DNA of 64,000 bases from Bacteroidota bacterium (lineage in GTDB: Bacteria; Bacteroidota; Ignavibacteria; UBA10030; UBA6906). This document shows, piece by piece, positions 3,365 through 61,972 of the stretch (position 1 is its first letter; each line of letters starts with the position of its first letter). Position numbers and translations under genes: made by a program. The notes beneath the pieces were generated by a model. It was given only the letters and a program-made list of their open reading frames with translations, was not told the DNA's origin and searched no databases. The DNA lies in NCBI GenBank assembly GCA_030835135.1, contig JAUQWO010000075.1:149330-213329 (forward strand). The letters run 5' to 3'.

Positions 3365-4303
3365 ATGCGCTCACTCTTCCTGCTTCCCGTTACCGTTGCC
3401 ATCGCACTCCTGGCGGCCGGCTGTTCGAACAACGGCACCGGGACCATCGAGGCCTCGGGCACGATCGAAGGGACCGAGATCAATGTCGCCGCCGAGGTCG
3501 CCGGTCGCATCCTTGCCGTTCCCCGCGACGAAGGCACCCGCGTCCGGCCCGGCGACACCCTCGCGGTCATCAATGATGAAGAATACCGTCTCCAGCTTCG
3601 GCAGGCCGAGGCGAATCTCGCCTCAATGGAAGCGGCGTACCGCCTTGCGCTCGAAGGCTCGCGCAAGGAAGACCTCATTCAGGCCGAAGCTGCCTACGCC
3701 ACCGCGCGCACGGACCATCAGCGCATGAAGGACCTTCTGGCCTCGGCCACGATCACCCAGAAGCAATATGACGATGCCTATGCACGCTTCGTGGCGGCAG
3801 AACAGAATTATCGCAAAGCGAAGACCGGGCTCCGTCCGGAAGAGATCAGCGGTGCACGCGCGCGACGCGATGGCGCGGCGGCGCAGGTGGACCTGCTCCA
3901 CAAGCGCATCCGTGATTGTGCCGTGCGTGCGCCGGCACCCGGTACCCTCACGCTCCGCGCCGTGGAACCCGGCGAGCTCGTCGGCATGGGGAGCAATATC
4001 GCACGCCTGACCTTCCTGGACCGCGTGAAGCTGACGATCTATGTGAACGAGGCCGATCTGGGGCGCGTGGCGCTCGGTCAATCAGCCGACGTGACGATCG
4101 ATACGTTCCCCGGCAAGCCGTTCACCGGTCGTGTGGTGTACATCTCGCCGAACGCAGAGTTCACACCGAAGAACGTGCAAACCAAAGAAGAACGGACGAA
4201 GCTTGTGTTCGCCGTGAAGATCGAGATCGACAATCCCGATGGCGGATTGAAACCCGGCCTGCCGGCCGATGCGGTCCTCCACACCGCGGCGAAGGCGCAG
4301 TGA
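3365..4303 (+). CDS. HlyD-family membrane fusion/periplasmic adaptor lipoprotein
   Basis: 312 aa; signal peptide with lipobox LAAGC; coiled-coil region; C-terminal beta-barrel-like segment (DVTIDTFPGKPFTGRVVYISPNAEFTPKNVQT) typical of HlyD/YbhG-like adaptors. Confidence 0.8.
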   Translation: MRSLFLLPVTVAIALLAAGCSNNGTGTIEASGTIEGTEINVAAEVAGRILAVPRDEGTRVRPGDTLAVINDEEYRLQLRQAEANLASMEAAYRLALEGSRKEDLIQAEAAYATARTDHQRMKDLLASATITQKQYDDAYARFVAAEQNYRKAKTGLRPEEISGARARRDGAAAQVDLLHKRIRDCAVRAPAPGTLTLRAVEPGELVGMGSNIARLTFLDRVKLTIYVNEADLGRVALGQSADVTIDTFPGKPFTGRVVYISPNAEFTPKNVQTKEERTKLVFAVKIEIDNPDGGLKPGLPADAVLHTAAKAQ

Positions 4304-6545: not shown

Positions 6546-7507
6546 ACGATCTCGCGATCGACGTCCGCGACCTCACGAAGCGCTTCGGCGCCTTCACGGC
6601 GGTGGACCGGGTTTCGTTCTCCGTGAAGCGTGGCGAGATCTTCGGCTTCCTCGGCGCCAACGGCGCCGGGAAGTCCACCACGATCCGCATGCTGTGCGGA
6701 CTCCTGCAGCCGACCTCCGGTTCCGCCACGGTGGGCGGGTTCGATCTGCTGACGGAGACCGACCGGGTGAAACAGACGATCGGGTATATGTCGCAGCGTT
6801 TTTCCCTCTACGATGACCTCACCGTCGAACAGAACATCCGTTTCTTCGGCGGCGTCTACGGCCTGGAAGGCGAGCGGCTGCGCGCACGCATGGACTGGGT
6901 CCTTGGGATGGCGGACCTCCGGGGGCGCGAGGGGAGTCTCACCCGGACTCTCTCCGGCGGCTGGAAGCAGCGCCTTGCGCTGGGTTGTGCGATCCTCCAT
7001 GAGCCACAGATCGTCTTCCTCGATGAACCGACCGGCGGCGTGGACCCCATCTCCCGCCGCAATTTCTGGGAGCTCATCAATCAGTTGTCGGCCAATGGCG
7101 TGACCGTCCTCGTGACGACGCATTTCCTTGACGAGGCCGAATACTGCAATGATATCATCCTCATCAATGCCGGGGCGCTCATTGCCTCGGGGAGCCCCAC
7201 CGAGCTGAAGACCGAGCACATCCGCACACCGTTGCTGGAGGTGACGTTGGGCGACGGCGAGATCGTGGACGCGCTCGAAAGGATCAGAGTGGAACCCTGG
7301 GCCATCGAAACATCCGTGTTCGGCACACAGCTCCATGTGATGGTGGCCGATGAGGAACGCGGCAGGGCCGACATCCTCCGGGTCCTCGGCGCCCGCACCA
7401 TGCGTGTCGCCGGGATCGAGCGCATCACCCCGTCACTGGAGGATGTCTTCCTGTACCTCCTCGATCACGATGCGGGCCGGCAGTCAACTGAAACCAAGGC
7501 AGGATAG
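6542..7507 (+). CDS. ABC transporter ATP-binding protein (second NBD subunit)
   Basis: Walker A GANGAGKSTT; LSGGWKQR; FLDEPTGGVD; ATGA overlap with TolC. Confidence 0.88.
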   Translation: MNDLAIDVRDLTKRFGAFTAVDRVSFSVKRGEIFGFLGANGAGKSTTIRMLCGLLQPTSGSATVGGFDLLTETDRVKQTIGYMSQRFSLYDDLTVEQNIRFFGGVYGLEGERLRARMDWVLGMADLRGREGSLTRTLSGGWKQRLALGCAILHEPQIVFLDEPTGGVDPISRRNFWELINQLSANGVTVLVTTHFLDEAEYCNDIILINAGALIASGSPTELKTEHIRTPLLEVTLGDGEIVDALERIRVEPWAIETSVFGTQLHVMVADEERGRADILRVLGARTMRVAGIERITPSLEDVFLYLLDHDAGRQSTETKAG

Positions 7508-8672: not shown

Positions 8673-9815
8673 ATGAACGTCAAACGCAGCCTTGCCGTCA
8701 TCCTCGAGATCGTCCGGAAGGAATTCTATCAGATCCGGCAGGACAAGCGCATGCTCGGCCTTTCGATCATGGCCCCCGTGGTCCAGGTGATCCTCCTCGG
8801 GTATGCGGCCACGACGGATATCAAGAACACGACCATGGTGGTCTGCGACCAGGACCGGACCGCCGAGAGCAGGGCCTTTATTGCGACCTTCACATCGTCG
8901 GGCTACTTCGTCCATGGCTACGATGTGGCCACGCCGGACGAGGTGGACCGGTACATCGAGAATGCACGGGCGTCGATGGCACTGGTGATCCCGCGGGGGT
9001 TCGCCGGGGACCTGCTGACCCGGAGGACCTCCACGGTCCAGATCGTGCTGGATGGCACCGATGCCAACACGTCGAACGTGCTTCTCAATTACGCCACCCA
9101 GATCGTCGGCACATTCTCGCAGCGGATCCTGCTCGAGAATGCCATCGCGATCCAGGGTCGATCGGCTGCACGGGTCATTCCGGAACCACGTGTGTGGTTC
9201 AATCCGGATCTGAAGAGCACGAACTTCATGGTCCCCGGCGTGGTGGGGCTGGTCCTGATGATCATCACCATGACGCTGACGGCCCTCGGGATCGTGAAGG
9301 AAAAGGAGATCGGCACCATGGAGCAGTTGCTCGTCACCCCGATCAAGCCGTACCAGCTGATCCTCGGGAAACTCATCCCGTTCACGATCATCGGGTTCCT
9401 GGATGTCCTGATCGTCCTTGCCCTGGCGCACTACTGGTTCGCGGTGCCGCTGCTCGGGAGTCTGCCGCTGCTGTTCGCTCTCAGCGGGTTGTTCATTCTG
9501 ACGACCCTCGGACTGGGACTGTTCGTGTCCACCATCGCGAGGACGCAGCAGCAGGCGATGCTGATCGCGCAGTTCTTCTTCTTCATGCCGTTCATGTTCC
9601 TTTCCGGTTTCACGTTCCCGATCGCCAACATGCCGGACAGCATCCAGGTGTTCACGTACATCATCCCGCTCCGCTATTTCCTCGACATCGTGCGCGGGAT
9701 CTTCCTGAAGGGCACCGGCCTCGGCGAACTGTGGCCGCAGGCGCTGGCGCTGTTCGCGCTGGGTGTGGTGATCTTCTCCTTGAGCGTTGCGCGCTTCCAG
9801 AAGAAGCTGGAATAA
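8673..9815 (+). CDS. ABC-2 type transporter permease (paralog)
   Basis: 380 aa; same architecture as and clearly homologous to the preceding permease. Confidence 0.8.
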   Translation: MNVKRSLAVILEIVRKEFYQIRQDKRMLGLSIMAPVVQVILLGYAATTDIKNTTMVVCDQDRTAESRAFIATFTSSGYFVHGYDVATPDEVDRYIENARASMALVIPRGFAGDLLTRRTSTVQIVLDGTDANTSNVLLNYATQIVGTFSQRILLENAIAIQGRSAARVIPEPRVWFNPDLKSTNFMVPGVVGLVLMIITMTLTALGIVKEKEIGTMEQLLVTPIKPYQLILGKLIPFTIIGFLDVLIVLALAHYWFAVPLLGSLPLLFALSGLFILTTLGLGLFVSTIARTQQQAMLIAQFFFFMPFMFLSGFTFPIANMPDSIQVFTYIIPLRYFLDIVRGIFLKGTGLGELWPQALALFALGVVIFSLSVARFQKKLE

Positions 9816-26722: not shown

Positions 26723-27891
26723 AGAAACTCGCGGGTGCCGATGGGCCGGTCGGTCTCTACGTCCATGTGCCTTTCTGTGAGAGGAAGTGCGCCTACTGTG
26801 ATTTCTATTCGCTGGAGAATCATGGCGGCATCGATGCATTCCCGGACCTGATCACGCGGGAGATCGCTCTGTACGCAGACGACCGTGATCCTGCCCGTGT
26901 CCGGACGCTCTACTATGGTGGCGGAACTCCCTCGGTCCTCTCGGTCGATCAGTTGCGGGTGCTGCAGGACGCGTTCCGGCACTCGTTCCGCATCGAACCC
27001 GATGCGGAGATCACGATCGAGGTGAACCCGGGCACGGTCGATCCCGCATCGCTTGCCGCGTACCGGTCGCTCGGCTTCAACCGCCTGAGCATCGGTGTAC
27101 AGTCTTTCGATCCCGGTGCGCTCGCATTCCTCGGACGTATCCATTCGGCCGATGATGCGCGCCGGTGTATCCGTGATGCGCGCGATGCGGGGTTTGCCAA
27201 CCTCAGCATCGATCTCATCTATGCGGTCCCCGGTCAGACCGACGCGAGCTGGTATGCAACGCTCGACGAAGCGATCGCGCTGCGCCCGGAGCATATCTCC
27301 GCGTACAGTCTCATCGTTGAAGAGGACACCCCACTGTACGTCCAGGTCCGGGAGGGGAACGTGACGCCGCATACCGATCCCCGCGAGGCGGCACTGTATG
27401 AGGGAACGATGGCACGGTTGTCGGCCGCCGGGTACGACCACTATGAAGTCTCGAACTATGCCCGGCCGGGGTGCCGCAGCCGGCACAACAGCTCGTACTG
27501 GGACCATGCACCGTATCTTGGATTCGGGCCGTCGGCACACTCGTTCGTTGCGTCGTCGGCGGAGGGGCCGGCCCTGCGCTGGTCCAATGTCCGGAGCCTG
27601 CAGGGGTGGTCCGGCATGATCGAGAAGGGCGAGCGCCCGGTGAGCCAGGAAGAGGTGCTCTCCGGTCAGGAGGTGTTCGACGAGGGGATATTCCTCGGTC
27701 TGCGTGCCAACGGCCTGGATCGTGCGCGTGTCGAACGTCTGAGCGGCATCCGGTTCACGGGCCGGCAGCATCAGACCCTGGCGGACCTGGTGGGAGCGGG
27801 TCTTGCGGTGGAGGAGGAGGGGCGGTTCCGGCTCACGCCCGCGGGGTTCGTCATCTGTGACGAGATCTGCGCCCGCCTGCTGGTTCCTTGA
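26719..27891 (+). CDS. hemW: Radical SAM heme chaperone HemW / coproporphyrinogen III oxidase-like
   Basis: Start MKKLAG with ATGA overlap onto lepB2; radical SAM CxxxCxxC (CERKCAYCDF); HemN C-terminal domain. Confidence 0.85.
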   Translation: MKKLAGADGPVGLYVHVPFCERKCAYCDFYSLENHGGIDAFPDLITREIALYADDRDPARVRTLYYGGGTPSVLSVDQLRVLQDAFRHSFRIEPDAEITIEVNPGTVDPASLAAYRSLGFNRLSIGVQSFDPGALAFLGRIHSADDARRCIRDARDAGFANLSIDLIYAVPGQTDASWYATLDEAIALRPEHISAYSLIVEEDTPLYVQVREGNVTPHTDPREAALYEGTMARLSAAGYDHYEVSNYARPGCRSRHNSSYWDHAPYLGFGPSAHSFVASSAEGPALRWSNVRSLQGWSGMIEKGERPVSQEEVLSGQEVFDEGIFLGLRANGLDRARVERLSGIRFTGRQHQTLADLVGAGLAVEEEGRFRLTPAGFVICDEICARLLVP

Positions 27892-27964
27892 ATCTCTCGG
27901 CGTTTTCGTCTATATTAGACGATAGACTTTTCATTCCCGGATGTTCCCGTAGCACACCATAAGG

Positions 27965-30673
27965 ATGTCTGAGGCTCTCATGACCAACACCACCCTCAAC
28001 CGCATCATCGCGGCCGTTGTCTTCGTTGCCTCCTTCGGCGTGTACCTCCTGACCCTCGCCCCCACGGTCGTGTTCTGGGATGTGGGCGAGTTCATCGCCG
28101 CGGCGAAAATGATGCAGGTGCCCCATCCTCCCGGTTCGCCGCTCTTCCTGCTGCTCACACGGTTCGCGATGATGATCCCGGTGGCAGCGGACCAGGCAGT
28201 GCGCGCGCACATGCTCTCGGCGCTGCTCAGTGCTCTCGCCATTCTGTTCGGGTATCTCGCGACCGTCAAGGTCGTGGAGATCTTCCGTGGTGCTCCCGCG
28301 GACCTGCTCGACCGTATCACGGTGTACGGGTCGTCGGCCATCGGCGCGCTGGCGCTGGCCTACTCGACATCCTACTGGGGGAATTCCATCGAAGCCGAAG
28401 TGTATGGCGCAAGCATGTTGTTCCTGAATGCCATCCTCTGGCTCATCCTGCGCTGGCGCGAGCGGTCCGAGTCCCGCGGGAACGAGAAATATCTGCTGCT
28501 CATCGCCTACCTGATCGGCCTCTCGCTCGGCGTGCACCTGCTGGCGCTGCTGGCGATCTTCCCGGTCCTCATGATCATCTATTTCCGGAAGTTCGAGTTC
28601 ACCGTGTCCAGCTTCCTGAAGTTCGCGCTCGTGGCATTCGGGGTGTTCATCGTGGTGTATCCGGGCATCGTCAAGTATCTCCCGGGCATGATGGACGGCG
28701 ATTTCATGGGCAAGAAGAGCGTGGTGATGGAGTATCTGCCCTGGCTCATCATCGCGGCGATCGCCTACGGGGTGTATTCCTCGTATCAGAAGAAGCAGAA
28801 ACTGCTCCACATCGGTCTGCTGGCCATGCTCCTGATCATCATCGGCTACACGACGTATGTCCAGGTGGTGATCCGGTCCAACGCCAACCCGCCGATGAAT
28901 GAGAACGAACCGAGCAACCTTGCCCGCCTCACCGCGTACCTCGGCCGCGAACAGTACGGCGACGCGCCGCTGTTCATGCCCCGCCGGTACAGTCAGGAGC
29001 CCCACCAGCAGGGGATCTACACGAAGTATAGCAGCGACTACGATTTCATGTTCCGGTACCAGCTGAACCATATGTTCTTCCGGTATCTGTTCTGGAACTT
29101 CATCGGAGCGGAGGGCGATGCGCAGGATTCCGGCGTCAGCTGGTCGTCCACGTTCGGCATCCCCTTCATCATCGGATTCCTGGGCATGTTCGCGCATTTC
29201 AAGAGGGACTGGAAGATCGCGCTCGTGCTCCTCGCCGCGTTCATCATCCTGGGCCCGGTCCTGGCGCTGTATCAGAACCAGCAGGAGCCGCAGCCGCGTG
29301 AACGCGATTACTTCTACGTCGGCGCGTTCTTCATCTTCTCCATCTGGATCACGGTCGGCATCGTGTCGCTGATCGATTGGATGCGCACCCTGACGAAGGA
29401 ACACTCCCTGCGCACAGCGTTCACCGTCGCCATTGTGGTCGTACTGCTCGCGGCGATCCCCGGCCAGCTGCTGAAGGCAAGCTGGAAGGACCATAACCGT
29501 TCGGGCAACTATGTGGCGTGGGACTATTCGTACAACATGCTGCAGTCGTGCGAGCAGGATGCGATCCTGTTCACCAACGGCGACAATGACACGTTCCCGC
29601 TCTGGTACCTCCAGGATGTGGAAGGCGTGCGCCGCGATGTGCGCATTGTGAACCTCAGCCTGGTGAACACGCCGTGGTATATCAAGCAGATGAAGGCGAC
29701 ACCGTACTACACGGAAGCCAAGGCGGTCCCCATCAGTCTGAGCGACAATCAGATCGAAAGCATCCAGCCGGTGATCTGGGAACCGCGCCAGATCGACCTG
29801 CCGGTGACGCAGGAGGCGATCGCACGCTATGGTGTCACGGACACGTCGGTCATCCGCACCGGGAAGATCACCTTCCTCATGCGGAACACGCTCGAAGTGG
29901 GTCAGACACGCGCGATCCGCATCCAGGATATCATGGTGCGGGATATCATCTATACGAACCAGTGGAAGCGTCCGATCTATTTCGCGGTGACCTGCGCACC
30001 GGACAGCAAGATCGGGCTGGACGAGTACCTGTGGTTCCACGGTCTCACGTGGCGCTTCGAGCCGCGGAAGGTGAACCGCGAGGACCTCGGGCTCGACAAG
30101 CGTATCCTGGAGGCGAACCTGAACGACGAACCGGAAGGGTTCTCCACCACGCCGCGGTACGGGTACAAATGGCGCGGGATCGCGGATACGACCGTGTACT
30201 TCGACGAGAACACCACCCGCCTGATGTTGAATTACCGCTCGGCCTTCATCCGTCTTGCCATGTATTACATGAACGTGGAAGGCAACCCGGTGAAGGGGAT
30301 CGAGACGCTCGACCGGATGGAGAAGCTCATGCCGCGCGAGAAGATCCCGATGGGCTGGGAGCTCATGTCGGACCTGGCGAACATCTATGACCGGTTCGGC
30401 CGCAAGGACAAGTATGAGGAACTCGCGGGCGAACTCGAGACGACGGCCCGTGCACTCATCAAGGCGGGTCAGGCGAACGTGAACAGCTATTACAATCCGT
30501 ACCGGGTTCTGCTGGACATCTATGAAGTGCGCAAGGACCACCGGAAGTCGCTGGATCTGCTGCAGGAACTGCAGGTACAGTTCCCGCAGGACCCGAACCT
30601 CCGTGCGCGCATCGAGAGCCTGAAGCTCCAGGTCGCCCACGACGATTCGGCCGCACGGGTGGCCGGAAAGTAG
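27965..30673 (+). CDS. DUF2723 family membrane protein (PMT/GT-C-like putative glycosyltransferase) with C-terminal helical/TPR-like domain
   Basis: 902 aa; about 11 predicted TM helices at the N-terminus; hallmark DUF2723 motif FWDVGEF...VPHPPGSPL. Alternative start ATG 27980 has a better-spaced GAGG RBS. Confidence 0.8.
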   Translation: MSEALMTNTTLNRIIAAVVFVASFGVYLLTLAPTVVFWDVGEFIAAAKMMQVPHPPGSPLFLLLTRFAMMIPVAADQAVRAHMLSALLSALAILFGYLATVKVVEIFRGAPADLLDRITVYGSSAIGALALAYSTSYWGNSIEAEVYGASMLFLNAILWLILRWRERSESRGNEKYLLLIAYLIGLSLGVHLLALLAIFPVLMIIYFRKFEFTVSSFLKFALVAFGVFIVVYPGIVKYLPGMMDGDFMGKKSVVMEYLPWLIIAAIAYGVYSSYQKKQKLLHIGLLAMLLIIIGYTTYVQVVIRSNANPPMNENEPSNLARLTAYLGREQYGDAPLFMPRRYSQEPHQQGIYTKYSSDYDFMFRYQLNHMFFRYLFWNFIGAEGDAQDSGVSWSSTFGIPFIIGFLGMFAHFKRDWKIALVLLAAFIILGPVLALYQNQQEPQPRERDYFYVGAFFIFSIWITVGIVSLIDWMRTLTKEHSLRTAFTVAIVVVLLAAIPGQLLKASWKDHNRSGNYVAWDYSYNMLQSCEQDAILFTNGDNDTFPLWYLQDVEGVRRDVRIVNLSLVNTPWYIKQMKATPYYTEAKAVPISLSDNQIESIQPVIWEPRQIDLPVTQEAIARYGVTDTSVIRTGKITFLMRNTLEVGQTRAIRIQDIMVRDIIYTNQWKRPIYFAVTCAPDSKIGLDEYLWFHGLTWRFEPRKVNREDLGLDKRILEANLNDEPEGFSTTPRYGYKWRGIADTTVYFDENTTRLMLNYRSAFIRLAMYYMNVEGNPVKGIETLDRMEKLMPREKIPMGWELMSDLANIYDRFGRKDKYEELAGELETTARALIKAGQANVNSYYNPYRVLLDIYEVRKDHRKSLDLLQELQVQFPQDPNLRARIESLKLQVAHDDSAARVAGK

Positions 30674-30731
30674 GCGGTACGCCGCGCCGTCGATGTCAGG
30701 ACGGTGCGCAGTACCGTCCTGCGTTGCTCGT

Positions 30732-31847
30732 ATGCGTATCCTCGTCATCAACTGGCAGGACATCACCAATCCGCTCGGCGGCGGGGCGGAAGTGCACCTG
30801 CACAGTATCTTCTCGCGCGTGGCGCGACGCGGCCATGATGTGACGCTGCTCTGCAGCGGCTATCCGGGCGCGCCCGCAACCGAGAACCGCGATGGTCTGA
30901 CGATCATCCGCCGCGGAGGGCGGTCCACATTCAACGTGACCGCCCTTCTGTCGTACCTGCGTGAGTGCCGGACCCCGCCGTTCGATGTCGTCATCGATGA
31001 TCTGAACAAGATCCCCTTCCTCACACCCCTGTTCGTCCGCCGGCCGCTCATCGGCATCGCCCATCATCTCTTCGGTACGAGCATCTACCGCGAAGTCAAC
31101 CCGGTGGTCGCTTCGTACGTGTACCTCATGGAGCGGCTGGGCCTGCTCGTCTACCGTCTGAGCGGCATGCCCTTCTTCGTCGTCTCCCCCAGCACGCAGA
31201 AGGAATTCGAGGACCTCGGGTTCGCATCGGCGCGGCTTCACCTGGTGCACAATTGCGTGGACCATGTCGTGCACCGTCCGGCACCGGATCGCCGTTCGCC
31301 GGCGCCGGTGATCGGGGTGGTGGGACGGATGAAGCGGTACAAATGCGTGGACCATGTGCTGCAGGCAATGCCGGCGGTCCTGCAGGCACGTCCGGAGACG
31401 AGGCTTCTGATCGTGGGCGAGGGGGACGACCGTCCGCGCCTCGAGGCGCAGGTGCATGCGCTGGGGATCAACGGTGCCGTGACCTTCACCGGCTACGTGA
31501 GCGATGAGCGGAAGGTGGAGCTGTTGCAGGAGATGTGGTTCAGCGTGACCACGTCATCGAAGGAAGGGTGGGGGCTGACGGTGCTGGAGGCGAATGCCTG
31601 CGGCACGCCGGTGATCGCAACGAATGTGCCCGGGTTGCGCGACGCGGTGAAGGATGGAGAGACAGGAGTGCTGGTACCGTTCGGGGATGCGCGGGCGCTG
31701 GAGCAGGAGATGCTTGCGCTGATCGGCGATGGTGCGCGGCGGGAACGTCTGACGACGGGCGCCCTTGCCTGGGCGGCGGAATTCAATTGGGATAACGCTG
31801 CGACGAAGACCATCGCGGTGCTGGAACGGCTGGTGCACGCACAATAG
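30732..31847 (+). CDS. Glycosyltransferase family 4 (GT-B)
   Basis: 371 aa from MRILVINWQD; C-terminal GT4 signature EGWGLTVLEANACGTPVIATNVPGLRDAV with E-x7-E. Confidence 0.85.
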   Translation: MRILVINWQDITNPLGGGAEVHLHSIFSRVARRGHDVTLLCSGYPGAPATENRDGLTIIRRGGRSTFNVTALLSYLRECRTPPFDVVIDDLNKIPFLTPLFVRRPLIGIAHHLFGTSIYREVNPVVASYVYLMERLGLLVYRLSGMPFFVVSPSTQKEFEDLGFASARLHLVHNCVDHVVHRPAPDRRSPAPVIGVVGRMKRYKCVDHVLQAMPAVLQARPETRLLIVGEGDDRPRLEAQVHALGINGAVTFTGYVSDERKVELLQEMWFSVTTSSKEGWGLTVLEANACGTPVIATNVPGLRDAVKDGETGVLVPFGDARALEQEMLALIGDGARRERLTTGALAWAAEFNWDNAATKTIAVLERLVHAQ

Positions 31848-32095
31848 GAAGGGGCTGGTGTGCTGTAACGAACGTGTAGGGGCGCAGCATGCTGCGCCCG
31901 CACAAAAATAGGAAGGGGCTGGAGTGCTGCGACGAGCGTGTAGGGGCGCAGCAAGCCTGCCAAACAATGTTACGTGGGTAAGGTGCGGTAACGAACGTGT
32001 AGGGGCGCAGCATGCTGCGCCCGCACAAGAATGGGAAGGGGCTGGTGTGCTGCGACGAACGTGTAGGGGCGCAGCATGCTGCGCCCGCACAGGGT
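31847..32095. repeat. Tandem array (~4 copies, 64-bp unit) carrying a 20-bp perfect palindrome GGGCGCAGCATGCTGCGCCC
   Basis: Unit GGAAGGGGCTGGTGTGCTGYRACGAACGTGTAGGGGCGCAGCATGCTGCGCCCGCACAARAATRG. Perfect palindromes at 31880-31899, 32003-32022 and 32067-32086, plus one decayed copy. Lies between the convergent GT4 and DinB-like gene ends. Confidence 0.85.
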
Positions 32096-32127
32096 CAATG
32101 CAGTACCTACGCCGTGGCAACCACGGT

Positions 32128-32607
32128 TCACTTCTTCCCCCGCTTTATCAGCTGTATCTGCCCCGCATGGTACACATCGTGACATGCCACCCCGTACACC
32201 ACCGCTTCGATGGTCACCGCACCGGTTCCCCCCGGCGCCTTCCTGGCAAGGTCCCTGTCGCGCAATGACCCCACGGTCGCGATGAGGTCGCGGTGCGTCT
32301 CTTCAAGGAGTCTCAGGTCGGCGTTCCATTCCTCCGCGGTCGGTACCCCGGGCCGGGCAAAGAAGTTGCTCCCTTTCAACGGGAATGAGCCCCGCTTCGC
32401 TCCGGTGATCCGCCGTACGACCGTATACTTCCAGTACGCGCAGTGGAGCGCGAGTTCCTGAATGCTATGGCGCCCGGGTGCCGGCCGCCATGCGGCCTGC
32501 GCCGGGGTGAGCCCTCTGAGCGATCCCCGCAGGTTCGTGCCGTGCCATGCCTTGCGGTCGTAGGCCTGATGAAGCAGCCGCAGCAGTATCGCAACGCTGT
32601 TGTCCAT
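32128..32607 (-). CDS. DinB/YfiT-like (DinB_2 superfamily) protein
   Basis: 159 aa from MDNSVAILLRLL; His-containing four-helix-bundle motifs (HCAYWKY, CHDVYHAGQ). The ORF-track start at 32808 runs through the repeat array and is an artifact. Confidence 0.6.
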   Translation of the reverse strand: MDNSVAILLRLLHQAYDRKAWHGTNLRGSLRGLTPAQAAWRPAPGRHSIQELALHCAYWKYTVVRRITGAKRGSFPLKGSNFFARPGVPTAEEWNADLRLLEETHRDLIATVGSLRDRDLARKAPGGTGAVTIEAVVYGVACHDVYHAGQIQLIKRGKK

Positions 32608-32653
32608 CTTGTCTCCAGTATAGTGCTTGGCCGGTTGGTGCATCGATCGGGTA

Positions 32654-32806
32654 GGGGCGCAGCATGCTGCGCCCCTACAAGGGTAACGGTGTGTACATGC
32701 TGCGCCCCTACAAGGGCAGCGGTGTGCACATGACGCCCGCCTACAAGGGTAACGATGTGCACGTGCTGCCCCCCTGCAAGGCGACGGTGTGTACATGCTG
32801 CGCCCC
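32654..32806. repeat. Second array: 22-bp perfect palindrome GGGGCGCAGCATGCTGCGCCCC plus four ~33-bp half-palindrome units
   Basis: Palindrome at 32654-32675 followed by degenerating units TACAAGGGTAACGGTGTGTACATGCTGCGCCCC. Lies between the DinB-like start and the TonB-dependent receptor stop. Confidence 0.8.
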
Positions 32807-32820
32807 AATCCGCCGCGTGT

Positions 32821-34875
32821 CTAGTTCAGGAACTCCCACGACACGCCGAACCTGAACCGCCGGCCCAGCGCCGGAGTGAAGGGGGTGGTGAAATACTGGA
32901 CGTCGGTGACGTTCTCCCAGAGCACATGGATATACGCATCACCGATATGCCCGATGAGGACGAGGTCGAGCGTGGACGCCGCGCCCAGCTGGGGACTGGT
33001 ATTGACGAGGGGGAAGAGGTCGCGGCTCAGTACTGTCGCACCGTAGTATCGTCCCTGCACCTGCCCGCGCACGCCGACCTGCAGTTCAAGTGCATCGTTC
33101 AGGATGCGGTTCCTGTAATAGACGCCTCCGCGTGCATACCCCCGGGGCGGTTCATCGAGGGCGATGGCCGGCATCTTCTCCCAACGCACGATCCCCGCCG
33201 TCCCCTCGATCGTGAACCAGGCGACGTGGAGTTTCACTGCGATGTCGAGACTATGGAGCCGGCACTCTTCCTCGCTCTTCTGAAGGAAGATCCATGGGCG
33301 CAGTGTATCCGCCGACAGCGGTCCTGATGTCACGAGCAGACCCGATGAGATGCCGATGAAGTTGCGGATCGTCCGGTAGCCATAGTTGATCTTCGCTGTG
33401 CCGGTATGTCCGAGGTCGAACTCCACGCCCGCTTCGAACAGCAGATGACGCTCCTTGTCGGGGAGGATCGTGGGCATGACCTTCCCCCAGAAGACCGGCT
33501 CCGTGAAGGTGGCAGAGCGTTCCATGAGCGCCGCCCCCGCGGTGAGCGTCAGCAGATCGCCCGGGCGAAAACGGATATCGCTCCCGCCGCCGAAGTACAT
33601 CTGCCTGCTGATGTTGTCCACCCTGCCGTACACCGCCCAGCGACCGCGATCACCGAACGCCAGCTCATGCGTGAACCATCCCCCGATGGTCGTGCGATGG
33701 AATGTTCCCATCGCTGAACCGCCACGCATCCTCTGGTCGTCGAGTGAGAGACCCATGGTGAATGCGTGGGACCCCCGGTCGAATCGCTGGCGGACCTGGA
33801 GGCCCGTCCGCGCGAGCCGATGATCCTCGGCCAGGAACAGGCCATTCGGTGTCGTGCGGTTCTCTTCATCCCGGTATTCGCGGACGCCCTGCGACCTGTA
33901 GGCCGACACCGAGGTGCATGCCGTCGAGTCGTCCGTAAAACTGCCCGACAGCTGGAGGGAAAGATCATGCCGCGTGTTCTTCTCGTAGGCATCCGGGTTC
34001 CGGACGATCGCCTGCTGGGTCGAGAAGGCGAGCGCGGTGCCGGTGGCGGTCAGATCGATCCCCTCGTTCAATCCCGTCTGCGTCTGCGTATACAGGTAGT
34101 GCGCGGTGAGGTCCCAGTTCTTGCCCGGGTGGTAGCGCACATCCGTGCGGAGATTCCACTGCTCGTGCCCGCTGTTATCGAACCGCCCGCCCGTGCCCTG
34201 ATACTGATACCCGGCCTGCACGCTCACGCGCTGACTGATGTCCTGCACGAACGACCCGTCGCTTGTGGCATAACTGTAGTCGGATTCTTCATACCGGATG
34301 CGGGTCATGGGGGTGACGCGCGAGATCCGGGGACGGATGATATTGATCGCGGCTCCCGTTGCCCCCGTGCCGTGCACGAATGACCGCGTGCCGGTCATCA
34401 CCTCGATCCGGTCGGCCATGCCGGCGGGGATCATGGAGAGGTTCGGTGCTCCCGCCGAGGGGTCGCTCATGGGGATACCATCCACCATCACAACCGTCCC
34501 GCGCCAGTCGATCCCGTGGACGTAGGGGCGCATGTACTGGCCGACGCTCGACGGGTCTGCCATGTATACGCCAGGAACGTTCGCGAGAATATCGTTGAGG
34601 GAAACGGGCGTCTGCCATTCCATCGCGGTCGCTGTGATGGTTTCGGTCGTATCCGCGGAGAGCATCACGGATCCCGCCCAGCGCCGGACATCGAAGTGCA
34701 TCAGCGTGTCCGGCCGCGCTTTCCGGGTCGAGTCGGGCACCGCGCTGCGCACTCCCGGAGGAGGACCTTCGGTCCGTTTCTCTTTCTCCTGGGCAACCGA
34801 GGGAGCGGATGCGTTGATCGTCAGGAGCAGGACCAGAAGGGCGGGTTGTACCCTGCGGAGGGAAGAGACGTTCAT
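32821..34875 (-). CDS. TonB-dependent outer membrane receptor
   Basis: 684 aa; signal peptide; plug-domain motifs (VSLNDILANVPGVY; IEVMTGTRSFVHGTGATGAAINI); 22-strand barrel-sized C-terminus ending WEFLN. Confidence 0.8.
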   Translation of the reverse strand: MNVSSLRRVQPALLVLLLTINASAPSVAQEKEKRTEGPPPGVRSAVPDSTRKARPDTLMHFDVRRWAGSVMLSADTTETITATAMEWQTPVSLNDILANVPGVYMADPSSVGQYMRPYVHGIDWRGTVVMVDGIPMSDPSAGAPNLSMIPAGMADRIEVMTGTRSFVHGTGATGAAINIIRPRISRVTPMTRIRYEESDYSYATSDGSFVQDISQRVSVQAGYQYQGTGGRFDNSGHEQWNLRTDVRYHPGKNWDLTAHYLYTQTQTGLNEGIDLTATGTALAFSTQQAIVRNPDAYEKNTRHDLSLQLSGSFTDDSTACTSVSAYRSQGVREYRDEENRTTPNGLFLAEDHRLARTGLQVRQRFDRGSHAFTMGLSLDDQRMRGGSAMGTFHRTTIGGWFTHELAFGDRGRWAVYGRVDNISRQMYFGGGSDIRFRPGDLLTLTAGAALMERSATFTEPVFWGKVMPTILPDKERHLLFEAGVEFDLGHTGTAKINYGYRTIRNFIGISSGLLVTSGPLSADTLRPWIFLQKSEEECRLHSLDIAVKLHVAWFTIEGTAGIVRWEKMPAIALDEPPRGYARGGVYYRNRILNDALELQVGVRGQVQGRYYGATVLSRDLFPLVNTSPQLGAASTLDLVLIGHIGDAYIHVLWENVTDVQYFTTPFTPALGRRFRFGVSWEFLN

Positions 34876-47960: not shown

Positions 47961-48003
47961 GGAAAAAACAACAAAAAGGGGGCCGGTGGTTCCACCGGCC
48001 CCC
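47961..48003 (-). terminator. Rho-independent terminator for icd
   Basis: Perfect 12-bp GC stem GGGGGCCGGTGG/CCACCGGCCCCC at 47978-48003 (tight loop), followed on the minus strand by TTTTTGTTGTTTTTTCC; 13 bp after the icd stop. Confidence 0.7.
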
Positions 48004-48015
48004 ACAGCTCAAAGA

Positions 48016-49305
48016 CTACATATTCTTGACGACGGCCTTCCCGAACTCAGAGCACTTCACTTCCGTGGCTCCTTCCATCAGGCGGGCGAAGTCGTAGGTC
48101 ACGACCTTCTGAGCTATGGTCTTTTCCAGCGAATGGATGATCAGATCAGCCGCTTCACTCCAGCCCATATAGCGGAACATCATCTCGCCGCTCAGGATCA
48201 CCGAACCGGGATTCACTTTGTCCAGCCCCGCATACTTTGGTGCGGTGCCATGGGTCGCCTCGAATACGGCGTGTCCGGTCTCATAGTTGATGTTCCCACC
48301 AGGCGCGATGCCGATCCCACCAACCTGCGCGGCGAGTGCATCCGAGATATAATCACCATTCAGGTTCAGCGTGGCGATGACGTCGTATTCCGCCGGCCGG
48401 GTCAGGATCTGCTGCAGGAATGCATCGGCAATGGCATCTTTGATCAGGAGCTTGCCTGCCGGCGGCTTGCCGCCGCAATCATCCCACGAAACCGTCTGGC
48501 CGGAGAATTCGCGCTTGGCCAGGGCGTAGCCCCAGTCCCGGAATCCGCCTTCGGTGAACTTCATGATGTTGCCTTTGTGGATCAGTGTCAGCGATTGACG
48601 CTTCTGCGCGAGCGCGTACTGGATCGCCGCGCGGACAAGACGTTCGGTGCCTTCCTGAGACACCGGCTTGACACCGATGCTCGAGGTCTCCGGGAAGCGG
48701 ATCTTGGTGACTCCCATCTCACCCTGCAACCACTTCACGACCTTCTGGGCTTCGGGCGTGCCCGCCTTCCACTCGATCCCGGCGTAGATGTCCTCCGTGT
48801 TCTCGCGGAAAATGACCATGTTCACGAGCTCGGGGCGCTTGACCGGGGAGGGGACACCGGCGAAATACTGCACGGGGCGCAGGCACACGTACAGGTCGAG
48901 CAGCTGCCTGAGCGCTACGTTGATGGAGCGAATACCGCCGCCAATGGGGGTCGTGAGCGGGCCCTTGATGCCGACCAGGTATTCACGGATCGCAACGAGG
49001 GTATCGTCGTGCAGCCAGGTATTGGGGCCATACACCACATTTGCCTTCTCACCGGCAAACACTTCGAACCACTCGATCCGGCGCTTCCCACCGTATGCCT
49101 TCTGAACCGCGGCATCCAGAACGATCTGGGATGCTTTCCAGATATCCGGGCCGGTTCCGTCCCCCTCGATGAACGGGATGATCGGGTCGTCAGGGACCTG
49201 CAAGGTGCCTTTGGACATGATGATCTTGGTACCCCGGGTGGGAGGGGTGAGTTTGGCATAGGTGGGCATGATGTACTTCTCCTGTGATATGGTCTTCTGC
49301 GTCAA
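48016..49305 (-). CDS. icd: Isocitrate dehydrogenase (NADP-dependent, homodimeric type)
   Basis: 429 aa; [22 protein letters not shown] and [10 protein letters not shown] motifs typical of Icd. Confidence 0.93.
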
Positions 49306-59091: not shown

Positions 59092-60491
59092 CAACCAAGG
59101 CCATCGTACTCGGTATCAGCATCGCGGCCCTCGTCGCGGGTGCCTGCACACCAGCGATCGCAGGCGGTGAGCGGACGAACATTCAGGGTGTTGGCATGGC
59201 CCGCACCTTCGTGGCCCACGCGCGCGGGCTCGATGCCGTCGGCATCAACCCGGCCAACCTGGCCGCACAGGACGGCGGTCGCGTGACGCTCGGCCTCATG
59301 CCCATCGGGGTCCACCTCGGGAGTGATTTCCTGACCTACGGTCTCTATTCGAAATACTTCACCGGGCAGGAAAGCGGCACCGGCCGGGTCAGCAAGCATC
59401 TGACCGACGCCGACAAGCAGGATATCCTCTCCTCGTTCCCTGATGGCGTGGGCCGGCTTTCGGCCCACCTGGAAGCGCGGCCCGTGGGATTGTCGGTGCG
59501 CATCACGGATCACAGCCGGATCGCCCTCACCATGACGGAGTATGTGATGGTGAATGCGATGATCCCCCACGACTATCTCGAATTCCTGTTCTATGGCAAC
59601 ACGCCGGGGTCAGTGTACGAATTCGGGAAGACCTCTGCCGAGGCGTACTGGCTCCGCGAGTATGCGCTGTCGTTCGGCACGAACCTGCCGGCGCCGTCCT
59701 TCCTGAACAGCCTCTCCGCGGGGGCTGCGGTGAAGATGGTGCATGGATTCGGATATTTCCAGGTCGACAGGTTCAATACATCCATGCTCACGGGCACCGA
59801 TGGCATCCTGCATGGCTCGGTGGATGTGCACGGCCGTGCGTCGGGTATCGATCCCCTGACGGGTGCGGAGAACGCGAACTTCCAGCCGTTCCCTGCCCCC
59901 GCGGGATCAGGACTGGCCTTCGATCTGGGCGTGGCGTCGGATGTGAACGACTACCTGTGTGTTGGGCTGAGCGTCACGGATATCGGGTCGGTGGAGTGGC
60001 GTGCGAATGTCGAGGAGCTCGTCGGGAGCGGGCAACTCGAAGTGACGGACCCGTTGAGCCAGGTGCAGCGCGATTCGATCGAGAATGCGGTGTCGGGTGA
60101 ACATCATCCCGGCACGTCATTCACGACGGCGCTCCCCACGACGTTCCGTGTCGGTGCCGCGATCGAACTCCACAAGACCCCGCTCCTGAAGAACTTCCTG
60201 TGGGGTGAGTGGACGTTCGCGTGTGACTACAATCAGGGCCTCGTGGATGGGGCCGGCATCTCGACGTCCGGGCGGTTCTCCATGGGCCTGGAATTCCGTC
60301 CGTGGGGATTCCTACCGCTCCGTACCGGTGCATCGTTCGGCGGGGTGGATCATTTCAACTTCGCGCTCGGGTTCGGCCTGCACTTCGGGGTGTTCGATCT
60401 CGACCTGGCCTCGGAACATCTGAATTTCCTGCTGCAGGAGGAGTCGCTGTCCCACGGCTCGATCGCCATGGGTATGCGTATCCGCATCTGA
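59088..60491 (+). CDS. FadL/PorV-like outer membrane beta-barrel protein
   Basis: 467 aa from MTTKAIV (ATGA overlap). Signal peptide. N-terminal motif [27 protein letters not shown] resembles the FadL/OmpP1/PorV hatch motif (G-G-A...NPA-LA). Confidence 0.45.
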
Positions 60492-61972
60492 GCAGTGTGT
60501 CCGCGGGTGTGCAGGGACGGTGGGTGGCCGTTCCTGCCTGCTGCCCGGCGACCCCGTCTGGTGGTGCAGACGGGGTCGTTTTGTTTCTCGAGGATGAACT
60601 TCGAGAGGTCGCGGTCCCGCACGATCGATGAGAGGCGGGACACGACGCGATCGTGATCGATCACGATCGTGGCTGAGGGGATCTCGTCCGGTGCCAGGTA
60701 CAGGGCATCCTCGAGGAGTGTCGTCAGGATGGTATGGAGCCGGCGCGCGCCGATGTTCTCCACCTGTTCGTTCACTTCGGTGGCGATCCGGGCGATCTCC
60801 CGGATGCCGTCCTCCCGGAACTCCAGCGTGATACCCTCCGTGGCGAGCAACGCGCTGTATTGCTTGAGCAGGGCATTCTGGGGAAGCGTCAGGATCTTGA
60901 CGAAATCGTCCTCGGTCAGGCTGTTGAGTTCCACGCGGATGGGGAAGCGGCCCTGCAATTCGGGGATCAGATCGGAGGGCTTGGCCACGTGGAACGCACC
61001 GGAGGCGATGAACAGGACATGGTCGGTCTTCACCATGCCGTACTTCGTCATCACGTTGGATCCTTCCACGATCGGGAGCAGGTCGCGCTGGACCCCTTCC
61101 CGTGATACGTCCGGTCCGCCGGCCGGCCCCTTGGACCCGGCGATCTTGTCGATCTCATCGAGAAAGACGATCCCGGAATTCTCCACCCGCTGCACGGCTT
61201 CGCGGACGGCGGCGTCCTGATCGATGAGCTTGGCGGCCTCCTCGTTCGTGAGGAGCGTGCGTGCCTCAGCAACGGACACCTTCCGGCGTTTCATCTTCTT
61301 CGGGAACATGCTGCCGAAGAGGTCCTGGATGTTCACCCCCACCTCTTCCATGTTCATCGGGCCCACGACCTGCATCATCGGACTGTCGTTCGCGGGGAGG
61401 TCGAGCTCCACCATCCGGCCATCGAGTTCGCCGGCGCGGAGCCGCTGGCGGAATTTCTCTCGCGTGGTGCCGCCATCGTCGACGGGCACCGGGGTCTGTT
61501 CTCCCTCGGGGGCAGGGGAGGGACGTTTGCGCGGAGCGGGAATGAGGATGTCCAGCACCCGTTCCTCGGCCATCTCCTTCGCTTTCTCCTCGACGCCCTT
61601 CTTGTGCTCGGCCTTCACCATCGTGACGGCAAATTCAGTCAGGTCGCGGATGATGGATTCCACATCGCGGCCAACATACCCGACCTCGGTGAATTTGGAT
61701 GCCTCCACCTTGATGAACGGCGCGTTCGCCAGCCGCGCCAGGCGGCGGGCGATCTCGGTCTTGCCCACGCCGGTCGGGCCGATCAGGATGATGTTGTTGG
61801 GCATGATCTCTTCGCGGAGACCGGGGGCCACCTGCAGGCGGCGCCAGCGGTTCCGGAGGGCGATCGCCACCGACCGCTTTGCGGCGTCCTGACCGATGAT
61901 GTATGCGTCGAGTTCCCGGACGATCTCGCGCGGCGTGAGCTCGGAACGGGGTGCAGCAGGGGATGATGTCAT
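60350..61972 (-). CDS. hslU: ATP-dependent protease ATPase subunit HslU, with anomalous ~80-codon C-terminal read-through
   Basis: Canonical HslU from [34 protein letters not shown], Walker [16 protein letters not shown], through the conserved terminus ...DLSKFIL at about 60590. No stop follows: the ORF continues Arg-rich through the terminator hairpin and 142 bp antisense into the neighbouring gene. Confidence 0.85.
60549..60590 (+). terminator. Rho-independent terminator after the sigma-54 operon
   Basis: 12-bp stem GCGACCCCGTCTG/CAGACGGGGTCG, 6-nt loop GTGGTG, then TTTTGTTTCTCG. Confidence 0.8.

Follow-up and report, generated by a model that had tools for sequence, protein, structure and literature searches.

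Genomic Context of the Repeat Arrays

A 64-kb stretch of contig JAUQWO010000075.1 from a Bacteroidota bacterium (assembly GCA_030835135.1), hereafter the window, contains two tandem repeat arrays built on a short palindrome and located on either side of a gene encoding a DinB_2-family protein. The palindrome is described below as a GTAG-tagged repetitive extragenic palindromic (REP) element. The window has a G+C content of 62% and represents a tightly packed chromosomal region that contains GroEL, LepA, signal peptidases, RpoN and HrcA-GrpE-DnaJ. Its GroEL shares 95% identity with proteins labelled 'Bacteroidetes bacterium' and 89% with those labelled 'Ignavibacteriae bacterium', and the Pfam content of the other window genes (the 25 commonest of 77 families) reflects ordinary cellular functions. 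From left to right, the locus consists of a glycosyltransferase family 4 (GT4) gene on the plus strand, array 1, the DinB_2 gene on the minus strand, array 2, a TonB-dependent receptor gene on the minus strand, and a gene encoding an IspE-like kinase. The features are as follows:

30693-31847, plus strand: GT4 glycosyltransferase gene (Pfam Glycos_transf_1, E 1.5e-41; list of open reading frames (ORFs))
31843-32091, plus strand: array 1, four head-to-tail 64-nt units, each of about 36 nt of flank followed by a REP (Tandem Repeats Finder, unit alignment)
31876-31899, plus strand: REP copy 1, GTAG followed by GGGCGCAGCATGCTGCGCCC, 29 nt past the GT4 stop; hairpin of -10.8 kcal/mol
31940-31963, plus strand: REP copy 2, decayed, with the left arm intact and the right arm lost (GTAGGGGCGCAGCAAGCCTGCC); -2.6 kcal/mol
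31999-32022, plus strand: REP copy 3 (exact 20-mer scan, stem-loop scan)
32063-32086, plus strand: REP copy 4, positional counterpart of the single REP in the related contigs L148 and L121 (alignment)
32128-32607, minus strand: DinB_2-family gene, 159 aa (Pfam DinB_2, E 2.7e-18)
32651-32678, no strand assigned: complete REP carrying a tag at either end, GTAGGGGCGCAGCATGCTGCGCCCCTAC, a perfect palindrome of 28 nt (stem 14, loop 0)
32663-32806, minus strand: array 2, 4.4 copies of a 33-nt unit made of the REP right arm, CTAC and 17 nt of flank (Tandem Repeats Finder)
32821-34875, minus strand: TonB-dependent receptor gene (Pfam Plug and Porin_10), upstream of the DinB gene and on the same strand

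The original prediction, made from the sequence without database searches, placed two palindrome-bearing tandem arrays around a 159-aa DinB-like gene that converges with the GT4 gene, and the exact-copy scan, Tandem Repeats Finder, the Pfam match and the strands of the two genes bear out each part of this description. The repeat-peptide ORFs that it dismissed as spurious are likewise artefacts of the arrays, which are traversed by several frames in the ORF list. A database protein of 159 aa (P0001) is 100% identical to the DinB product. Across the whole window, neither an Rfam search at gathering thresholds nor a scan for tRNAs returned anything.

Structure of the Arrays

Exact copies of the 20-nt core GGGCGCAGCATGCTGCGCCC begin at 31880, 32003, 32067 and 32655, with 0 expected from 100 dinucleotide-preserving shuffles, and no further copy with up to three mismatches is found elsewhere in the window. 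In all, five full and four half REP copies lie within 1 kb, with no others across the 64 kb. Tandem Repeats Finder delimits array 1 with a period of 64, 4.0 copies, 75% matches and a score of 309, and array 2 with a period of 33, 4.4 copies, 80% matches and a score of 183; both arrays were also recovered by a second repeat-family search.

The GTAG heads of array 1 lie on the plus strand, and the right tag is mutated, with GCAC in place of CTAC. The GT4 stop codon TAG (31845-31847) falls within the first 64-nt unit. The expectation that each 64-bp unit would carry the palindrome holds for three of the four; in unit 2 the right arm is decayed (GGGCGCAGCAAGCCTGCC) and no stable hairpin is formed (-2.6 versus -10.8 kcal/mol). 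Array 2 opens with the GTAGGGGCGCAGCATGCTGCGCCCCTAC copy, which lies upstream of DinB at 43 nt from its start codon and forms a hairpin with a folding energy of -14.7 kcal/mol (z -6.5). As had been described, this palindrome is followed by four decaying 33-bp half-palindrome units, with right-arm half-sites beginning at 32696, 32729, 32762 and 32794 and the decay being progressive along the array. Read on the minus strand, the array is a reiteration of the left arm GTAGGGGCGCAGCATG, and the boundary of its unit falls inside the central CATG of the REP.

Identification of a GTAG-Tagged REP Element

The repeated element is the 28-nt palindrome GTAG-GGGCGCAGCATGCTGCGCCC-CTAC, in which the stem GGGCGCAG / CTGCGCCC of 8 bp, or 12 bp counting the paired tags, is closed by a CATG loop and has GGGC at its foot. 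The palindrome noticed in the original prediction is therefore real, while the length of 20-22 bp given to it is too short, the natural unit being the 28 nt at 32651-32678. By published rules, REPs carry GTAG or GTGG 0-2 nt 5′ of a hairpin whose basal stem is paired throughout its 7-20 nt, whose loop measures 2-5 nt and whose first four stem bases include three or more G/C; they are also dispersed in the host genome, and have at least one member within 1000 nt of a tnpA_REP gene, encoding a REP-associated tyrosine transposase (RAYT) (Quentin et al. 2018, PMC6006769). In the window, GTAG directly abuts the stem in five of five copies, the stem of 8 bp begins with GGGC and carries the CATG loop, and the arrays are extragenic, one in the spacer that separates the convergent genes (31848-32127) and the other in the spacer that separates the co-directional genes (32608-32820). 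Together with the dispersal and RAYT adjacency in other genomes described below, these features lead us to estimate at about 0.8 the probability that the two arrays are local tandem amplifications of a GTAG-tagged REP.

The element had been likened to REP or bacterial interspersed mosaic elements (BIMEs), or to miniature inverted-repeat transposable elements (MITEs); the first comparison stands, on the GTAG tag, the G+C-rich perfect hairpin, the dispersal with unrelated flanks and the RAYT adjacency in other genomes, and the other two fall away. A BIME would alternate in orientation, whereas the copies of array 1 are all head-to-tail and array 2 consists of a full REP followed by direct half-sites. 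For a MITE, conservation over 133 copies from other genomes ends at the 28-nt palindrome, the flanks are random, and neither terminal inverted repeats nor target duplications are present. No inverted REP doublet forming a long hairpin (REPIN) occurs in the window. The exclusion of a CRISPR array in the original prediction was sound: the 'spacers' are themselves repeated, no unique spacers are present, the 25 commonest Pfam families include none of the Cas type and the Rfam search is empty. An integron attC site was set aside, with no integrase seen in the window and no attC-specific test made. The GGGCGCAGCATGCTGCGCCC sequence appears in no paper of the literature searched and is absent from the supplements of Di Nocera et al. 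(PMC3733652).

The Arrays Are Specific to the Window Lineage

The locus was compared with those of five DinB homologues of 76-90% identity on 11 independent contigs. The order TonB receptor-DinB-GT4 is kept in all of them, with at most one REP each:

L148 (DinB 90%): one REP in the GT4-DinB spacer; no REP in the receptor-DinB spacer
L121 (DinB 82%): one REP in the GT4-DinB spacer; no REP in the receptor-DinB spacer
L155 and L156 (DinB 84%): decayed REP in the GT4-DinB spacer; no REP in the receptor-DinB spacer
L149 to L154 (DinB 84%): no REP between GT4 and DinB, the genes overlapping by 20 nt; receptor-DinB spacer of 23 nt, no REP
L122 (DinB 76%): no REP in the GT4-DinB spacer; receptor-DinB spacer of 23 nt, no REP

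The single REP of L148 with its left flank aligns to one 64-nt unit of the window, and the receptor-DinB spacer carries a REP in none of the relatives compared. Since these relatives have one, a decayed or no REP between GT4 and DinB, the arrays are lineage-specific amplifications of a REP with its flanking DNA. The DinB gene is a resident, syntenic gene and not part of the repeat element; only the repeats vary. What had been suspected to be a cassette is then a group of ordinary, conserved neighbouring genes that a selfish hairpin repeat has invaded, a distinction that matters for annotation. The absence of a REP, a decayed REP, a single REP and arrays at one orthologous site also represent recorded stages in the growth of a REP cluster, and this series includes a rare half-palindrome array with its unit boundary in the hairpin loop.

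Beside its single REP, the GT4-DinB spacer of L121 (approximately 9225-9290) contains a direct repeat, roughly 20 nt long and unrelated to the REP (CCGTGTCCGGTCTGCGAGA / CCATGTCCCGTCAGCGAGAT / CCGCGTCCGGTTAGCG). The GT4-DinB spacer gains tandem repeats in more than one lineage.

Dispersal and Covariation of the Element in Other Genomes

The exact 20-mer is present in at least 119 genome loci, one genome per species having been scanned. Among the matches listed, a tally made by hand from record titles assigns 33 to Acidobacteriota, 30 to Gemmatimonadota, 24 to Chloroflexota, 6 to Planctomycetota and 6 to Pseudomonadota (including Serratia isolates), with about ten further phylum-level groups bringing the number of names to approximately 15. 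Some genomes hold the palindrome at several loci, for example OY969112.1, CAIUPP01 and DATDNF01. Several matches are located on megabase contigs or complete chromosomes, so that binning errors do not explain the spread.

Alignment of the 133 copies from other genomes among these matches defines the limits of the element. Positions -4 to -1 relative to the 20-mer are G, T, A and G in 113, 91, 98 and 95 copies, respectively, and positions +1 to +4 are C, T, A and C in 103, 103, 99 and 106, with random sequence further out; 115 copies carry a tag on at least one side. As conservation ends four bases to either side of the 20-mer, the mobile unit is the 28-mer and nothing longer. A relaxed search of viral contigs with GTAGGGGC-N4-CATG-N4-GCCC gave 251 matches; all four variable pairs are complementary in 230 of them, representing 24 distinct stems, and stem variants with compensatory changes co-occur within the same loci. 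This complementarity argues strongly for maintenance of the hairpin itself. The unit of the window belongs to a broad superfamily, GTAG-GGGC-N4-CATG-N4′-GCCC-CTAC, with a fixed frame and a covarying inner stem.

Five IMG/VR contigs classed as viral (L158, L182, L201, L209 and L163) each carry 6-7 GTAGGGGC...CATG...GCCC matches, a strand-specific count in which doubly tagged copies appear twice, over 7-14 kb, and have no RAYT; they may represent host-genome fragments rich in REPs, or phages that collect host REPs.

Association with RAYT Transposases

A RAYT-like HUH-tyrosine protein touches the exact palindrome in three of the at least 119 listed loci. In L030, exact REPs lie on both sides of the RAYT-like gene, 8-13 nt from the stop-to-stop ORF; in L006, one REP is located 35 nt upstream of the RAYT-like start and another within the ORF; and in L034, a REP lies 14 nt downstream of the gene. 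The three proteins, which share 33-40% identity with one another, match the NCBIfam family REP_Tyr_transpos (REP-associated tyrosine transposase) with E values of 1e-14 to 3e-21, two of the three match Pfam Y1_Tnp, and in the PDB their profile matches E. coli TnpA_REP (4ER8) and nothing else.

An alignment of these proteins identified 80 metagenomic loci encoding relatives with 37-62% identity. At these loci, the density of perfect hairpins tagged with GT[AG]G is 2.6 per kb inside the RAYT gene, 2.5 per kb within 250 nt of it and 0.14 per kb farther away, an enrichment of approximately 18-fold in or beside the gene. Tagged hairpins are present at 69 of the 80 loci, the GTAGGGGC head at 60, and the exact element of the window is the second commonest tagged hairpin. 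Family members lie within 1000 nt of a RAYT gene in L006, L030, L034 and L324. The REP superfamily is associated with this RAYT clade in other genomes. By contrast, searches with an HUH...Y..NP regular expression, with phmmer using the three RAYT-like proteins and with a small hidden Markov model found no RAYT in the window, L121 or L122, nor was any found in the 133 viral-contig loci scanned. The search for a RAYT or IS200-like transposase that had been proposed is thus negative in the window itself and positive beside the same palindrome in L006, L030 and L034; a RAYT would presumably also act in the genome from which the window derives.

REPs in Frame within RAYT Genes

A GT[AG]G-tagged perfect hairpin is present in frame within the RAYT ORF in 51 of 70 relatives (examples among L265-L344, e.g., L324, L266 and L292; also L006 at 4068-4095 and L034 at approximately 6900-7000). 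The internal REP is always located between the HUH motif (MPNHVHG) and WQRNY, in a variable segment, where it encodes peptides such as VGARHAVPL and GAACCAPT. The gap between HUH and WQR is mostly 40-55 aa where no insert is detected and reaches up to 103 aa where inserts are present, and the inserts are tandemly reiterated in L292, L274 and L339. Internal and external copies are identical in 14 of the 28 loci having both, and in several others they differ by one or two bases. No description of REPs in frame within RAYT genes was found in the literature searched, coverage of which is incomplete.

It is tentatively proposed, with the odds somewhat against the full statement, that the element of the window is a variant of a many-phyla REP superfamily whose cognate RAYT gene bears a REP in frame in its own coding sequence. 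If so, the RAYT gene could double as the master copy or the target of its own repeat, or the internal hairpin could autoregulate the gene, and REP sequences would not always be species-specific. The identical 28-mer across phyla and the in-frame REPs, if new, are relevant to the unsettled matter of how the spread and co-evolution of REPs and RAYTs proceed.

Immediately after the REP in the RAYT ORF of L006 (4092-4136), a 15-nt unit (TCTGGTTCTGCGCCC) is repeated about three times and encodes SGSAPSGSAPSG. This unit consists of the last 8 nt of the REP plus flank, a second right-arm reiteration resembling that of array 2.

Proposed Origin of the Arrays

A RAYT of the TnpA_REP type, an HUH-tyrosine transposase, would copy REPs as single-stranded DNA hairpins by reading the GTAG tag and the hairpin foot. 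The ancestor of the locus would have had one REP in the GT4-DinB spacer, where relatives retain a single or decayed copy. In the lineage of the window, this REP and about 36 nt of its left flank would have been amplified head-to-tail into four 64-nt units. Each unit of array 1 extends from the last GT4 bases (CGCACAATAGGAAGGGG) as far as the right-hand end of the REP (GCGCCCGCACAA), and a short direct repeat, CGCACA(A), is present at both the GT4 3′ end and the REP right edge; slipped-strand mispairing or unequal exchange at this repeat is a likely route to the first duplication, with more rounds giving four units that later diverged. A second REP would have entered the spacer between the TonB receptor and DinB genes, after which its right arm and 17 nt of flank were presumably reiterated four times. 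The position of the array 2 unit boundary in the CATG loop would fit breakage at the hairpin tip, or hairpin-stalled slippage and mis-realignment.

L017 and L097 also contain tandems of a REP plus flank, while half-arm reiterations are seen in L006 and L040, although such arrangements are uncommon. The idea that half-palindrome arrays are a general by-product of REPs finds little support, the clear cases being those of L006 and L040.

Several observations weigh against the interpretation of the arrays as amplified REPs. Copies at a single locus in 64 kb represent a low density for a classical REP family, and the window contains neither a RAYT nor a further REP copy. Head-to-tail and half-palindrome arrays are atypical of REPs, head-to-tail dimers being described as rare (Di Nocera et al., PMC3733652). 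The RAYT-like proteins score under the NCBIfam curated cutoff, half-arm copies near full REPs elsewhere are only about 3-fold over background with six cases, and the slippage and centre-break mechanisms are proposed from the sequence junctions.

Possible Effects on Gene Expression

The original prediction that the palindromes may act as hairpin terminators for the convergent GT4 and DinB genes finds little support: a terminator scan gives no terminator-like site at any REP and no copy is followed by a T-run, so that the REP hairpins are not canonical terminators. A scan for promoter-like sites found none. Two other stem-loops in the window do have T-runs, both G+C-rich with 12 bp, one at 47978-48003 (minus strand, after a gene ending at 48016) and one at 60549-60578 (plus strand, after a gene ending at 60491); unlike the REPs, they look like ordinary intrinsic terminators.

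REPs in E. coli stabilise upstream mRNA. By analogy, the likeliest effect of the hairpins in the window would be to shield the GT4, DinB and receptor transcripts at their 3′ ends, and array 2 could uncouple the receptor and DinB genes, which form a contiguous operon in relatives. That close relatives lack the arrays, and that the units are visibly decaying, argues that the arrays are not essential.

Alternative Explanations

One alternative is a small cassette, mobile or prone to recombination, that carries the DinB gene and has the arrays as its inverted ends; in its favour are the GTAG heads, which point inward from both sides (array 1 on the plus strand, array 2 on the minus strand), and a 41-nt inverted pair, 85% complementary, at 32062-32102 and 32639-32679 that brackets the DinB gene. 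This pair is essentially the palindrome itself, however, and the cassette reading is contradicted by the occurrence of DinB in the same slot between receptor and GT4 genes in all 11 contigs, with spacers down to 23 nt or an overlap and often without REPs. With no transposase, integrase or target duplication seen in the window and ordinary cellular functions among its 25 commonest Pfam families, a mobile cassette is highly improbable. That the arrays are assembly artefacts, arising from mis-joined, over- or under-collapsed repeats, is also very unlikely. The short-read assemblies of relatives often break near this locus (L155 ends 171 nt past DinB), and exact protein look-ups for the window DinB, GT4 and receptor returned no independent contig. 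Yet the units have diverged, with 75-80% matches and a gradient of decay in array 2 that collapse or chimeric joining would not yield, the REP at the equivalent position in the independent assemblies L148 and L121 indicates that the element is real, and similar arrays of REP plus flank occur in L017, L097 and L006. The arrays are likely break points in short-read assemblies.

The arrays might instead be selected cis-regulatory devices for DinB and its neighbours, with reiterated protein-binding half-sites spaced at three helical turns (33 nt) or hairpins acting as attenuators or stabilisers, rather than neutral by-products of a selfish repeat. Array 2 separates cistrons that lie 23 nt apart in relatives, and therefore sits inside an ancestral operon, array 1 parts convergent genes that overlap in relatives, the mRNA stabilisation by E. 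coli REPs offers a precedent, and gene clusters of Thauera are flanked by REP arrays (PMC3733652). Selection for such a role is nonetheless unlikely, given that close relatives have the same genes without the arrays, that decay is visible in unit 2 of array 1 and in the later part of array 2, and that neither promoter- nor terminator-like signals were found by scan. A coding origin has been considered for array 2, the 33-nt (11-codon) period of which is divisible by three and lies within an open frame (32128-32808, minus strand) that could extend DinB, from a TTG at 32808, to a 226-aa protein with a Cys-rich repeat N-terminus. There is next to no chance that this is so: the database form P0001 has only 159 aa and homologues have 151-179 aa, homologues read at the DNA level begin with Met-Asp like the 159-aa form, the ATG at 32607 has a Shine-Dalgarno sequence, GGAG, ahead of it, the DNA of array 2 yields repeat ORFs in other frames and on the opposite strand too, and the period of array 1, 64, is not divisible by three. 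The extended 226-aa frame is probably spurious and could mislead gene callers. Local tandem amplification of a GTAG-tagged REP remains the preferred interpretation of both arrays.

Other Features of the Window

A 972-aa open frame (27851-30769, minus strand) is antisense to a TMEM260-like gene (27965-30673, plus strand) and represents a high-G+C artefact; on the codon-position G+C pattern it ranks under the TMEM260-like sense gene, which was retained. A perfect 22-nt palindrome, CGATCGTGATCGATCACGATCG, is located at 60648-60669 in or near a gene at 60350-61972 (minus strand) and is unrelated to the REP family.

Comparison with Known REP Systems

GTAG-tagged REPs have been surveyed in Proteobacteria, Cyanobacteria, Chloroflexi and the Planctomycetes-Verrucomicrobia-Chlamydiae (PVC) group, where 24 numbered families were defined with sizes down to 20-100 copies, and clusters of single REPs reiterated in tandem with flanking DNA were already described (Di Nocera, De Gregorio & Rocco 2013, PMC3733652). 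The element of the window resembles these families in having a short, G+C-rich stem-loop with GTAG at one end, in forming sub-families with compensatory stem changes, in its location between convergent or co-directional genes, in its tandem clusters that include flank, and in its association, in other genomes, with RAYTs. It differs in its host, which belongs to an uncultured lineage and has its nearest GroEL relatives under the labels Bacteroidetes or Ignavibacteriae, in being tagged on both sides (GTAG...CTAC) with the whole 28 nt palindromic, and in its unusual head-to-tail and half-palindrome arrays. GTAG-tagged REPs are thereby shown in an uncultured Bacteroidota/Ignavibacteriota-like lineage.

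With the E. coli REPs and BIMEs the element shares a 5′ GTAG guide at the hairpin and, in other genomes, a gene for an HUH/Tyr enzyme acting on single-stranded DNA beside the REPs, an arrangement known as a REPtron. The neighbouring RAYT-like proteins of those genomes match 4ER8 at the HUH and WQ...Y..NP motifs, although similarity to E. coli TnpA_REP is otherwise weak (E 6e-5). The REPs of E. coli measure about 35 nt and are imperfect and bulged, and BIMEs alternate with defined linkers, whereas the hairpin of the window is perfect, has a 4-nt loop and is repeated head-to-tail. REPINs are said to have been described by Bertels and Rainey in 2011 as REP doublets, and like them, doublets of GTAG-REP and REP-CTAC separated by about 21-23 nt are found in other genomes (L007, L045, L071, L097 and L118). 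REPIN/RAYT systems are described as lineage-specific and vertically inherited. REPs have been described as species-specific (PMC6006769). An identical 28-mer under approximately 15 phylum-level labels, beside RAYTs with no more than 33-40% identity to one another, sits oddly with both descriptions.

The regular spacing of short palindromic repeats recalls CRISPR arrays, in which, unlike here, the intervening segments are not themselves repeated. Like the Rickettsia palindromic elements, REP-type palindromes are tolerated in frame, here inside the RAYT genes of other genomes; unlike them, the copies of the window are intergenic, and where REPs occur in frame it is the transposase gene itself that carries them, at one constant position. 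The locus represents a REP cluster of a known kind, with a modest novelty in its host lineage, in the graded REP states at one orthologous site, and in the half-palindrome array.

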